Position numbers and translations under genes: made by a program
In this document: in pieces, positions 1,601 through 43,385 of the stretch
How positions within the stretch are numbered: the stretch's first letter is position 1
How the letters are laid out: each line of letters starts with the position of its first letter
Notes under the pieces: generated by a model
The model's database searches: none
What the model saw: only the letters and a program-made list of their open reading frames with translations
Told to the model about the DNA's origin: nothing
Virus record (IMG/VR): IMGVR_UViG_3300027467_000624
From: a virus
Strand: one strand, 5' to 3'
Length of the DNA stretch: 64,000 nt

Positions 1601-1704
1601 TTTTTCTTTCCACCATTCTTTGCCTTTTTGGCAGTTGCGTTGCCTTGATTTTGTTTGGGTTGTTTACCAGATCCTTTCTTACCTTTATTTGCCGATTTTG
1701 CCAT
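1597..1704 (-). CDS. Small basic protein (35 aa)
   Basis: MAKSANKGRKGSGKQPKQNQGNATAKKAKNGGKKK; start overlaps upstream TGA. Confidence 0.55.
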   Translation of the reverse strand: MAKSANKGKKGSGKQPKQNQGNATAKKAKNGGKKK

Positions 1705-2111
1705 CAGAGATCTCCTCTCTGAAATGGTTTTTCTTCATCAACCTTTGCTTCAAGTGCTTCCACTCTCTCTTCAAGTGATGCATCAGAATCAACTAAAGGT
1801 AATTCTTCAGTTCTCGTTTGAATTGGTTCTTCCCAAACAAGTTCTGGAGGAGAAGGAGGAGAAGGAGGAGTTTCTACAACCTCTTCTCTTCTAGGTTCTG
1901 GTTTTTTTTCATCCTCATCATCACCACCTTTTTTCATAGTATTAATACCAAAGGTAGCAGCAGATGCGGTGAATACAGTAGCAATAAATGTTGGGTCCAT
2001 CTTAGAAAGAGCACCAGCATAACTTGCAGTAAGTAATGCAGCAGACCATCCAAGAATAGCAACACGAATCACAGTATTCATACATGTTTCCCTTTTCTTT
2101 TGTTTATCCAT
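1704..2111 (-). CDS. Two-TM membrane protein with acidic Pro-rich tail (holin-like candidate)
   Basis: Two hydrophobic segments then charged tail; directly downstream of lysozyme. Confidence 0.55.
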   Translation of the reverse strand: MDKQKKRETCMNTVIRVAILGWSAALLTASYAGALSKMDPTFIATVFTASAATFGINTMKKGGDDEDEKKPEPRREEVVETPPSPPSPPELVWEEPIQTRTEELPLVDSDASLEERVEALEAKVDEEKPFQRGDL

Positions 2112-2204: not shown

Positions 2205-2660
2205 TCATCCCTTCTTCCAAGATTCACCTTCTGCTTTTCTTCTACGAGCAAGACCTGCTTCCACATTTGAACCAGGATTTCGGTAGAGATAAAGAGCATC
2301 AGGAACTAAATCCCACTCTTTATTTTTCAGGCGTTTAGTAATAGTATTAAAGTTATCACCACCGTAAAAACCGGCACCAAGATTATAAGCAAAGCTGAGC
2401 AAAGCGCCTCTTTTTCCATCTGACATCTCGTTCCAATGTGGGATTTTGCGAAGTGATGGAAGGAACTGATTCTTACACTGTTCAATCAGAAGTTCATCTG
2501 CTTCTTGCTGAGTTAAAGTATCACCAAGTTTAAATGACGAACCATCTTTCTTACGGGTTGATCCCCAACCAATTGTGATTGGAAGTCCTCCAGTTAGGGG
2601 ATCAGGATAAGCATTTAAATGACATCCTTCAAACTCTTTGATTAGTTTAATGCCCATCAT
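2205..2660 (-). CDS. GH24 phage lysozyme domain; probably the -1 frame C-terminal part of the gene starting at 2932
   Basis: IKEFEGCHLNAYPDPLTGGLPITIGWGST (E-x8-D-x-T catalytic region), GLARRRKAE C-terminus; frame open upstream through 2717. Confidence 0.9.
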   Translation of the reverse strand: MMGIKLIKEFEGCHLNAYPDPLTGGLPITIGWGSTRKKDGSSFKLGDTLTQQEADELLIEQCKNQFLPSLRKIPHWNEMSDGKRGALLSFAYNLGAGFYGGDNFNTITKRLKNKEWDLVPDALYLYRNPGSNVEAGLARRRKAEGESWKKG

Positions 2661-2683
2661 TGGAACATCATCACTACCTGTTT

Positions 2684-2723
2684 GGGCAGCACCAGTAGAA
2701 GGAGCTGCCCCTCCTACTTTCCC
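2684..2723 (-). promoter_or_regulatory. Putative -1 programmed ribosomal frameshift signal (slippery heptamer plus stem-loop)
   Basis: mRNA reads CUG GGA AAG UAG: heptamer G GGA AAG at 2723-2717, 6-nt spacer, GGGCAGC/GCUGCCC stem (2710-2704 / 2690-2684). Confidence 0.7.
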
Positions 2724-2932
2724 AGTGGTTTACCACAATGAGGGCACACCTCTGCAGCAGCAGAAGCAGAGGCTGGTTGTGCTTTCTTGCCTCTGTAAAT
2801 CTCTGCCCAATCCACATTGTCTTCAAGATAATCATTTGGAAGATTATCTTCTAACCACTGAACTGCTTTAACGTGGTTGGGGTTCTTCTCGTCATAAAAT
2901 TTGAAGAAGTTATGTAAGTCGATTCTTGCCAT
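2714..2932 (-). CDS. 72-aa zero-frame product: shared N-terminal module, Ala linker, CPHCGKPLGK
   Basis: ORF track; N-terminus nearly identical to that of 3031..3702. Confidence 0.8.
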   Translation of the reverse strand: MARIDLHNFFKFYDEKNPNHVKAVQWLEDNLPNDYLEDNVDWAEIYRGKKAQPASASAAAEVCPHCGKPLGK

Positions 2933-3017
2933 TGTTGTCTCCGAAATACCGTTGATAAAGTTCGTTTGCTTCTATATGCTTACCATTATTTGTAAGATCT
3001 TTAATCACTTTAAGCAT
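2910..3017 (-). CDS. Tiny hypothetical protein (35 aa, MLKVIKDLTNNGKHIEANELYQRYFG)
   Basis: Sits between the two module-bearing genes; ORF-track start at 3146 overlaps the upstream gene. Confidence 0.5.
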   Translation of the reverse strand: MLKVIKDLTNNGKHIEANELYQRYFGDNNGKNRLT

Positions 3018-3030
3018 CTTTCGTTTAAAA

Positions 3031-3702
3031 TTAATCGAAGATTCGTCCCCATCCGTCAGACCCGTTAGGGGCCCAACGGTGCTTAAGAACTGCTTTTGTG
3101 TAAATAGTCTTCTTACCATTTTCAACTGGACCACTATAATTGTCATTTAATGATCCGTATGGATCATTAATATAATACCCCTTACCGTCTGGAGTTTTAC
3201 CAATCACAACACACATATGCCCACCAGTAGGTGCAGAAAGAGAACCCCTATGGAGTATGCCAATAATAACGGGCTTCCCATCGTCCAAACTTTTATCGAT
3301 ATCATCAAAAGATAAATTGTAACTAAAGTGTGACTTAACACCATAACTTGCCAGAACCTTCGTCTGTACGGCATGGTCAGTCGTATCACCAATTGCAAAT
3401 ACTTTCTTAACGTATTCATCATCACCTTTAATTGAACCTGGTTTCAAATAAGCAAGGCACATTGCACAGGAAGATGAGTTACAAGTTCTATGTGCATCTC
3501 TGTAGTTATCTACCTGATTAAAATAAGGAACAGGCAACACTGCAGGTGTAGGTGGAGCAGTCCTAAAAATACCCACCCAATCGGATTGCGAATCATCCAG
3601 GAACTTATCTGGAAGATTATCCTCCAACCACTGAACTGCAGCAACGTGGTTGGGGTTCTTATCATCATAAAACTTAAAAAAGTTATGAAGATCGATTTGC
3701 AT
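3031..3702 (-). CDS. C39-like (papain-fold) peptidase with shared N-terminal module; probable cell-wall hydrolase
   Basis: VPYFNQ...TCNSSSCAMCL, GGHMCVVIG, YINDPYG = Gln/Cys, His, Asp pattern of the C39_2 family. Confidence 0.8.
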   Translation of the reverse strand: MQIDLHNFFKFYDDKNPNHVAAVQWLEDNLPDKFLDDSQSDWVGIFRTAPPTPAVLPVPYFNQVDNYRDAHRTCNSSSCAMCLAYLKPGSIKGDDEYVKKVFAIGDTTDHAVQTKVLASYGVKSHFSYNLSFDDIDKSLDDGKPVIIGILHRGSLSAPTGGHMCVVIGKTPDGKGYYINDPYGSLNDNYSGPVENGKKTIYTKAVLKHRWAPNGSDGWGRIFD

Positions 3703-34732: not shown

Positions 34733-34804
34733 TGGAGTGTAAGGAAATCGAATCCTTATTGCTGGAATGCAAATCCAGAGTAATAACCGTTATACGAACA
34801 CCCC
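34733..34804 (-). tRNA. tRNA-Ala(UGC), CCA not encoded
   Basis: Cloverleaf GGGGTGT/ACACTCC with G3:U70 and A73; anticodon arm CTGGA-TTTGCAT-TCCAG; TTCGATT T-loop. Confidence 0.85.
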
Positions 34805-42977: not shown

Positions 42978-43385
42978 TTAAAGTGTGGTTTCTACTACAT
43001 TATTCTTAACTGGTCTTCCAAATGTTCCAGGAGGAAACTTCATACCTTTGTTCCAAGCAGGTTTCCCCTTCATAGACATACCGGTTTTCTGTCTTGACGC
43101 TTTATCTCTTTTTGATCCAGAAGTACCTTCACCACCATCGGTTTTATTAACCAATACACCACCACTATCTTTTTTACCCCAAAACTTTATGAGTGCTATT
43201 TCCAAAGATAATGCTTCTTGTTCTGTTAAGTTTTCTTTTATTCTTACTATTCTATCTCTATCAGGAGGTCGTTGAGCTAATCCTAACTTTCTTTTATTTG
43301 TGTCTCTAAATCCAGAACCTTTCCCAATGTAGTAAGGAGAATATCTATCTTCACGCAAATAAGCGTAAACGTAATACCTTTCCAT
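42978..43385 (-). CDS. Free-standing GIY-YIG homing endonuclease (short)
   Basis: YYVYAY...YYIGKG, R, LEIALI, VNKTDGGEG, PAWNKG. Confidence 0.8.
   Translation of the reverse strand: MERYYVYAYLREDRYSPYYIGKGSGFRDTNKRKLGLAQRPPDRDRIVRIKENLTEQEALSLEIALIKFWGKKDSGGVLVNKTDGGEGTSGSKRDKASRQKTGMSMKGKPAWNKGMKFPPGTFGRPVKNNVVETTL

Follow-up and report, generated by a model that had tools for sequence, protein, structure and literature searches.

Organization of the locus

The DNA analyzed here is a stretch of 64,000 nucleotides (nt), called the window in the following, from the IMG/VR record IMGVR_UViG_3300027467_000624. It is DNA of a T4-like cyanophage (Kyanoviridae). On the minus strand of the window an open reading frame (ORF) of 72 amino acids (aa) precedes a lysozyme of the GH24 family, which is encoded in the −1 frame relative to it. 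A preliminary description of the sequence had proposed that both are parts of one gene which yields a short 72-aa product and, by −1 frameshifting, a 242-aa fusion protein. All comparative tests that were run support this proposal. Judged from the comparison of related sequences, it is highly probable that a real programmed −1 ribosomal frameshift joins the 72-aa ORF and the GH24 lysozyme as one gene. The locus is composed of the following features:

2932..2714, minus strand: zero-frame ORF, 72 aa plus TAG; N-terminal module, Ala/Ser linker and CPHCGKPLGK tail
2932..2783, minus strand: N-terminal module, about 50 aa long and with three helices predicted; no Pfam family, predicted homodimer
2735..2746, minus strand: CPHC motif (residues 63-66) inside the conserved tail C-P-H-C-G-K-[PS]-L-G-K
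2723..2717, minus strand: slippery heptamer G GGA AAG, an X XXY YYZ sequence in the phase of the zero frame (CTG GGA AAG = 2725..2717)
2716..2714, minus strand: zero-frame stop UAG, abutting the 3' end of the heptamer
2710..2684, minus strand: hairpin with a 7-bp stem, GGGCAGC (2710..2704)/GCUGCCC (2690..2684), a 13-nt loop and a 6-nt spacer from the heptamer; predicted frameshift stimulator
2661..2723, minus strand: −1-frame linker GK-VGGAAPSTGAAQTGSDDVP, decoded solely after a slip; the next residues are MMGIK
2660..2205, minus strand: phage lysozyme (muramidase) domain of family GH24, 151 aa followed by the stop, −1 relative to the 72-aa ORF

An element resembling a Shine-Dalgarno (SD) sequence, GGAG, is found 8 nt 5' of the ATG at 2932. 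The 3' end of the 72-aa ORF reads TGC CCT CAT TGT GGT AAA CCA CTG GGA AAG TAG. The −1 frame is closed by a TAA at 2732..2730 and then leads through GKVGGAAPSTGAAQTGSDDVP into the lysozyme. Peptides of the linker that are encoded 5' of the ATG only in the −1 frame are, for example, VGGAAPSTGAAQTGSDDVPMMGIK in the window and VSSGGGASAPAAASGGDDVPMMGIK in relatives. The predicted trans-frame product comprises 72 + 19 + 151 = 242 aa. The lysozyme was assigned to GH24 by a match to PF00959 (E-value 4.3e-22, 79.2 bits at a cut-off of 22.3) which covers positions 1-125 of the 125 profile positions, and the motif EFEG...YPDP...ITIGWG is readable in its sequence. The end of the 72-aa ORF, the position and phase of the heptamer, the TAA, the open −1 frame and the GH24 domain had all been placed correctly in the preliminary description.

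In the window sequence by itself the heptamer and the fold behind it do not go beyond chance. GGGAAAG occurs four times in the window, compared with about eight expected occurrences, and a search of positions 2400..3000 against Rfam matched no family. The case for a programmed site is made because its signals are conserved in relatives, and not by the statistics of the window. Another GGGAAAG of the window (43319-43325, minus strand) lies in an open phase-correct frame of 62 codons and also in an open −1 frame of 140 codons; the 140-codon frame is most likely simply the real gene at that position.

Conservation of the heptamer in frame-broken relatives

When IMG/VR was searched at the protein level with the 72-aa product as query, 80 loci were retrieved. 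From these, two cultured relatives and the window, 82 loci with both halves were obtained, of which 53 were in-frame and 29 frame-broken. In all 29 frame-broken IMG/VR loci the shift was exactly −1, and all contained [CT]TGGGAAAGTA[AG]. An independent protein-based search of metagenome contigs (JGI/ENA) yielded 29 more frame-broken loci, again all −1 and all with GGGAAAGTA[AG]. Both retrievals together gave 42 distinct junction sequences from many samples. GGGAAAG was invariant in all 29 + 29 frame-broken loci, and the next codon was always TAG or TAA. Over all loci compared, the frame offset correlated perfectly with an intact heptamer. The junction of the window itself was recovered a second time, on an independent IMG/VR contig which is 100% identical to the window over the region.

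The codon usage of the conserved tail C-P-H-C-G-K-[PS]-L-G-K was then compared among loci. Its first eight codons are free at their third positions, with TGC/TGT, CCT/CCA/CCC/CCG, CAT/CAC, GGN and AAA/AAG observed in 27 loci, while the following Gly is always encoded by GGA and the Lys always by AAG. Such codon invariance is rare in the flanking domains, where it was found for 5 of 119 columns with a conserved residue (Gly, 0 of 13; Lys, 0 of 8). Synonymous divergence (dS) among the frame-broken loci is about 1 and thereby saturated, and the ratio of nonsynonymous to synonymous divergence (dN/dS) is 0.04-0.11 for both halves. Since GGA and AAG are invariant while other codons vary and dS is about 1, the constraint on the heptamer operates at the nucleotide level, beyond the requirement of the protein. 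The preliminary description had suggested aligning homologous loci for a conserved heptamer-stop arrangement, a frame break at this place and compensatory changes in the stem, and all three were found.

A scan for the motif VCPHCGK gave no new loci among the matches listed, which were mostly unrelated zinc-ribbon genes. One candidate, L088 (IMGVR_UViG_3300012770_000145), was rejected as a chance pattern match in an RNA-dependent RNA polymerase-like ORF (GDD motif) on an unrelated 1-kb contig. In L050 (IMGVR_UViG_3300047562_003796) a further frame break lies within the lysozyme domain, and the proteins P0011 and P0015 likewise show a second frame break in this domain or are truncated products with out-of-frame ends. 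These extra breaks are probably assembly errors or dead copies.

RNA structure downstream of the heptamer

Helices downstream of the heptamer were counted by a script; structural alignment with a covariance model gave spurious matches on both strands. The preliminary description had reported a 7-bp GC stem starting 6 nt after the heptamer. This stem is present at 2710..2684, and an uninterrupted helix of 7-13 bp which begins 3-6 nt past the heptamer was found in all 42 junctions. The spacer measures 6 nt in 31 of them. Altogether 16 distinct outer stems were observed, which fall into two sequence families. Shuffled sequences formed at least 7 bp in 28% and 9 bp in 4% of the cases. Within the stem family of the window, compensatory double changes (G:C to A:U and C:G to U:A) keep the pairing. 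The folding energy of the linker was −21.3 kcal/mol in frame-broken versus −15.9 kcal/mol in in-frame loci (p 6e-9).

Two further elements were considered and rejected. The pseudoknot suggested in the preliminary description, formed by the loop sequence CUACU with GGUAG further downstream, is not conserved: 13 of the 42 junctions have 5-nt loops which are unable to form it, and L010 has a central mismatch. AGGAGG 3' of the stop, as a ribosome binding site or stimulator, occurs in a minority of junctions only and lies 50 nt from the ATG.

In-frame relatives and natural revertants

Among cultured phages, the Synechococcus phages DSL-LC02 and DSL-LC03 (Kyanoviridae) are closest to the window, with about 81-83% DNA identity across the region. 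Both encode the same N-terminal module, an Ala/Pro linker and a GH24 domain 91-95% identical to that of the window, in the same synteny with a C39-like peptidase. In contrast to the window, they do so in a single ORF of 223 or 222 aa without CxxC, heptamer and stop, and the linker of the window contains 56-59 extra nt. Homologues that are in-frame fusions without the heptamer had been named in the preliminary description as evidence that would speak against frameshifting. Some relatives, including DSL-LC02 and DSL-LC03, are of this kind, but the large and diverged frame-broken class is not.

In-frame relatives share the architecture of the predicted fusion protein, with or without CxxCGK. In those with this motif it lies inside the linker, as VCSKCGKG, VCPKCGKG or VCPHCGKPL-TGE-VEGTSPSP..., and a CSECGK variant exists as well. 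The linker of the in-frame protein P0006 (the DNA of which is L118), CPHCGKPL-TGE-VEGTSPSP..., is an exact match to the linker reading of the −1 frame. L118 carries the cassette together with a 4-nt duplication that restores the frame; its heptamer has changed to GGGGAAG, and the stem has decayed. In L120 an 11-nt deletion has removed the stop and the 5' arm of the stem, and the heptamer has become GGGAGAA. L118 and L120 are in-frame derivatives of the cassette in which heptamer and stem were lost. Such a loss of the signals after restoration of the frame is expected if they serve only slippage.

Coding character of the linker and alternative explanations

Among the 42 junctions the distance from the heptamer to the lysozyme domain takes seven values between 60 and 78 nt, all of which are multiples of three, and the −1 frame is free of stops in all 42 linkers. 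Directly 5' of the ATG, third-position variation is seen in Val (GTC/GTA/GTT/GTG) and Pro (CCT/CCC/CCG/CCA) codons. When differing codon pairs were compared, 33% were synonymous in the lysozyme frame versus 7% and 1% in the other frames. The stretch from the heptamer to the lysozyme behaves as coding sequence of the −1 frame.

The alternative that survives best is a split gene. In this case an ancestral fusion would have come apart, the 72-aa module protein and a 151-aa lysozyme starting at ATG 2660 would be translated independently, and the heptamer would be without a role. Two consecutive ATG codons indeed occur in the window, at 2660, and most frame-broken loci have them as well; annotation pipelines call the two parts separately. 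The preliminary description had pointed out that no SD sequence is evident at ATG 2660. This is true, but it is uninformative and no obstacle to a split gene, since SD sequences are often absent in cyanophage genes and an SD core precedes only 14 of the 65 long ORFs of the window. A split gene leaves unexplained, however, why GGGAAAG is invariant at synonymous sites with a stop always abutting it, why a hairpin is conserved at a fixed spacing, and why indels occur only in multiples of three and the variation 5' of the ATG is of the coding type. Moreover, the lineage of L015 and L016 possesses no ATG, GTG or TTG from the heptamer to the catalytic EFEG motif, and its lysozyme domain is nevertheless under strong purifying selection (dN/dS 0.04-0.08). 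Because in-frame proteins carry Met-Met internally at the start of the domain, this sequence is best read as an ordinary residue pair which did not evolve as a start. Consequently, we regard a split gene as improbable.

Coupling of the two ORFs by termination and reinitiation is still less probable. Ribosomes which have finished the 72-aa ORF would restart at ATG 2660, 54 nt downstream, and the conserved elements would serve the coupling. The conserved stop and the proximity of the two ORFs on the same strand are in line with such a process. On the other hand, stop and ATG are separated by 44-62 nt with a stable hairpin between them, and this distance varies only in steps of three, which reinitiation would not need. 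The lineage without a start codon (L015) is not accommodated, and the codon-level invariance of the heptamer remains unexplained.

The view that this is a pseudogene in decay, or that sequencing or assembly introduced an indel into an intact in-frame lysozyme gene, is extremely unlikely to hold: the in-frame genes of the cultured phages DSL-LC02 and DSL-LC03, from which the window differs by the 56-59-nt insertion, and the extra lysozyme-domain frame breaks in some metagenomic contigs (L050, P0011) could be taken in its favor, but 42 distinct junctions from many samples share the same −1 break at the same place, both halves show the low dN/dS at a dS of about 1 given above, and an independent contig reproduces the window exactly. 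Transcriptional slippage was rejected, as runs of three G and three A are too short for it.

Several observations weigh against programmed frameshifting and have to be set against the evidence for it. The lysozyme domain of the window opens with ATG ATG (2660), and independent initiation at this position could coexist with frameshifting in genomes that retain the ATG. The RNA of the window alone is modestly structured (local-fold z-score −1.89). At minimum energy it folds into another hairpin of 11 bp at 2718..2694 (minus strand; AGUAGGAGGGG/CUCCUUCUACU), which takes in the last two bases of the heptamer and is in competition with the conserved stem. By eye this alternative hairpin is also possible in L010, where changes preserve the pairing, but it could not be recognized in the GCGGCAG stem family. 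Ala-rich linkers are inherently self-complementary (GCAGC/GCUGC), and the linkers of in-frame loci also reach about −16 kcal/mol. The shiftiness of AAG depends on the tRNA-Lys set of the host, and slippage on it would be favored by a single tRNA-Lys(UUU); of tRNA genes, just tRNA-Ala (TGC) was detected in the window (34733-34804, minus strand). The frame-broken form was not found among the cultured phages of the phage collection. Finally, when a tree was built from the flanking domains, the frame-broken loci did not group as a single clade, and supported branches force at least five changes. This lack of monophyly implies an exchange of the cassette by recombination, its repeated loss or reversion, or both. 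The 42 junctions do not represent 42 independent events, and part of the synonymous variation in the linker could date from in-frame ancestors. The tree also shows the persistence of the cassette in diverged backgrounds.

Proposed decoding and comparison with known systems

According to the frameshift model, ribosomes would start at ATG 2932. Most of them would terminate at the UAG at 2716..2714 and release the 72-aa protein, the predicted majority product. A fraction would slip back by one base with the tRNAs for Gly and Lys on G GGA AAG, which would re-pair with GGG AAA. This slip would be favored by the stop directly behind the heptamer and by the hairpin (2710..2684) 6 nt downstream. The slipped ribosomes would then read the 19-aa linker into the GH24 muramidase and produce the 242-aa enzyme. 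The computational evidence shows the layout of the site, its conservation, the coding nature of the linker and the disappearance of the signals in in-frame derivatives; the actual occurrence of slippage and its efficiency are inferred. Heptamer, adjacent stop and a hairpin at a distance of 6 nt make up a textbook bacterial −1 site.

G_GGA_AAG belongs to the most shift-prone heptamers in E. coli (PMC5009743). The identity of GGGAAAG with the slippery site of the lambda genes G/GT, stated in the preliminary description, agrees with the literature (PMC5009743, PMC3296357). In lambda the same site has a stop just behind it, and approximately 4% of the ribosomes shift (PMC3296357). The cyanophage locus shares with G/GT the identical G GGA AAG, Gly-Lys in both frames and the zero-frame stop right behind (PMC3296357; PMC5009743). 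As in lambda, two products with a common N-terminal part are predicted, one short and abundant and the other lengthened by a C-terminal extension. In contrast, the cyanophage gene is unrelated to G/GT. It encodes a novel module and a GH24 muramidase instead of a tail chaperone between the genes for tail tube and tape measure, and it has a conserved hairpin 6 nt downstream of the slippery site. It also does not belong to the tail assembly chaperones by its position, the neighbors being a C39-like peptidase and a DUF6450 protein.

The shift in E. coli dnaX (tau/gamma) leads to the shorter of the two products, with a contribution from an SD-like element upstream of the site. In the cyanophage gene it would lead to the longer one, and AGGAGG, which resembles an SD sequence, is located downstream and is not conserved. 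Common to dnaX, the transposase genes of the IS3 family and the cyanophage gene are an X XXY YYZ heptamer ending in AAG and a stem-loop at short spacing (PMC5009743).

Two products from one endolysin gene are known from phages of Gram-positive bacteria. For CTP1L, LysIME-EF1 and the phi2638A lysin, one gene gives a full-length enzyme and a free non-catalytic module, and the products multimerize; an internal start is used, and the free module is a C-terminal binding domain (PMC4777826, PMC7098653, PMC12203907, PMC9430671). Frameshifting is not mentioned in PMC9430671. The free cyanophage module is likewise predicted to self-associate. It differs in being N-terminal and in arising from termination, and it is the full-length form that would need a −1 frameshift. 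With neither an in-frame internal start nor a free C-terminal domain, the cyanophage gene is not a member of this group of two-polypeptide endolysins.

N-terminal module and predicted dimerization

The N-terminal module has 21 invariant columns (alignment A6). Its pattern DLHNFF..Y D..N..H..QWLEDNLP..D..W..R heads both the GH24 lysozyme and the C39-like peptidase of the locus. No relatives of the module were found in Pfam, in a profile search of the PDB or in the ESM Atlas. AlphaFold2 (AF2) placed helices at residues 6-11, 18-30 and 41-50 in the monomer of the 72-aa product, with a pLDDT of 57, which is too weak for a fold search. The full-length in-frame protein P0006 also gave a weak model (pLDDT 44).

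In order to assess self-association, two copies of the 72-aa product were predicted together with Zn included. The resulting ipSAE was 0.65, compared with 0.02 for the best control; in the calibration of the tool, this value is reached by 20 of 30 solved homodimers and by 1 of 23 solved monomers. The dimer runs share at least 93% of their contacts, and the pLDDT of the partners is at least 72. The prediction supports a dimerization of the N-terminal module, although it does not show it. The confident interface is formed by residues 1-48, which is the module, and the CxxC residues 63-66 lie outside.

The preliminary description had assumed that the short and the long product co-assemble through Zn bound by CPHC. 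This was not borne out. A zinc ribbon or knuckle needs four ligands, and the single CPHC provides half a knuckle. The best matches to Pfam zinc-ribbon families had E-values of 0.014-0.06 and 14-15 bits, below the cut-offs of 25-34, and the confident interface is that of residues 1-48 instead. A putative intermolecular link through the CxxC, by Zn or a disulfide, is possible; on this point the dimer model gives no verdict.

If the module dimerizes, possible partners of the 72-aa product would be a second copy of itself, the 242-aa enzyme and perhaps the C39-like peptidase. The frameshift might then fix the ratio of enzyme-free module to module plus muramidase and in this way determine the dose of a probable lysis enzyme set and its oligomeric composition. 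The frequency of slippage in lambda depends on the thiolation of tRNA-Lys. One may speculate about a dosing device in which the 72-aa product with its CxxC tail pairs with or caps the muramidase and the C39-like peptidase, the slip frequency sets the number of active heads per complex, and, on account of this dependence, the amount and timing of wall degradation are coupled to the sulfur or redox state of the infected cyanobacterium. We consider such a device rather unlikely.

Genomic context

The gene is flanked by two further genes on the same strand:

3702..3031, minus strand: C39-like cysteine peptidase, 223 aa, just upstream; PF13529 (E-value 6.8e-15), phrog_10051 'endolysin'
2111..1704, minus strand: DUF6450 protein, just downstream of the lysozyme; PF20048 (E-value 2.2e-16)

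The C39-like peptidase starts with the module that also heads the 72-aa ORF (about 50 aa, 66% identical), and PHROG profiles with an endolysin label cover these modules. The N-terminal half of the DUF6450 protein is hydrophobic, and its C-terminal half is acidic and rich in Pro. The position of this protein beside the lysozyme is kept in L118, L119 and L120, and it is a candidate membrane component of a lysis cassette. A lysis cassette is also a reasonable reading of the whole locus. DSL-LC02 (L001 2135-2518) has an additional ORF of 127 aa with a signal-peptide-like start, inserted between the genes for the C39-like peptidase and the lysozyme, which neither the window nor DSL-LC03 contains.

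Novelty and biological significance

Among phage genes, programmed frameshifts are known mainly from those of tail chaperones; cases in capsid genes and in a few others have also been reported. The preliminary description knew of none in a cyanophage lysozyme gene, and in our full-text literature searches, the coverage of which did not extend to a lactococcal lysin paper of 1994, no programmed frameshift in a cyanophage lysozyme or endolysin gene was found to be described. In the PRFect paper, 'lysins' are named among the genes reported with frameshifts, with the 1994 lactococcal paper as the source. PMC10885494 cites Shearman et al. 1994 for a lactococcal lysin made from two overlapping genes. 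The decoding mechanism proposed here is standard; what is new is the gene family in which it would operate and its biological use.

The locus would be a conserved and widespread case of recoding among uncultured T4-like cyanophages of fresh and estuarine waters. In current annotation pipelines the gene appears as two entries, a 'hypothetical protein' and a truncated 'lysozyme', which hides its architecture. A natural series of alleles exists, comprising plain in-frame, CxxC in-frame, frameshifted and reverted forms, with which the role of the ratio of short to long product would be directly testable. The arrangement mirrors the two-polypeptide endolysins of Gram-positive systems, in that the same outcome would be reached by a different decoding route. 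Finally, the occurrence of one module, predicted to dimerize, on two different wall hydrolases suggests that these cyanophages may employ a combinatorial lysin.

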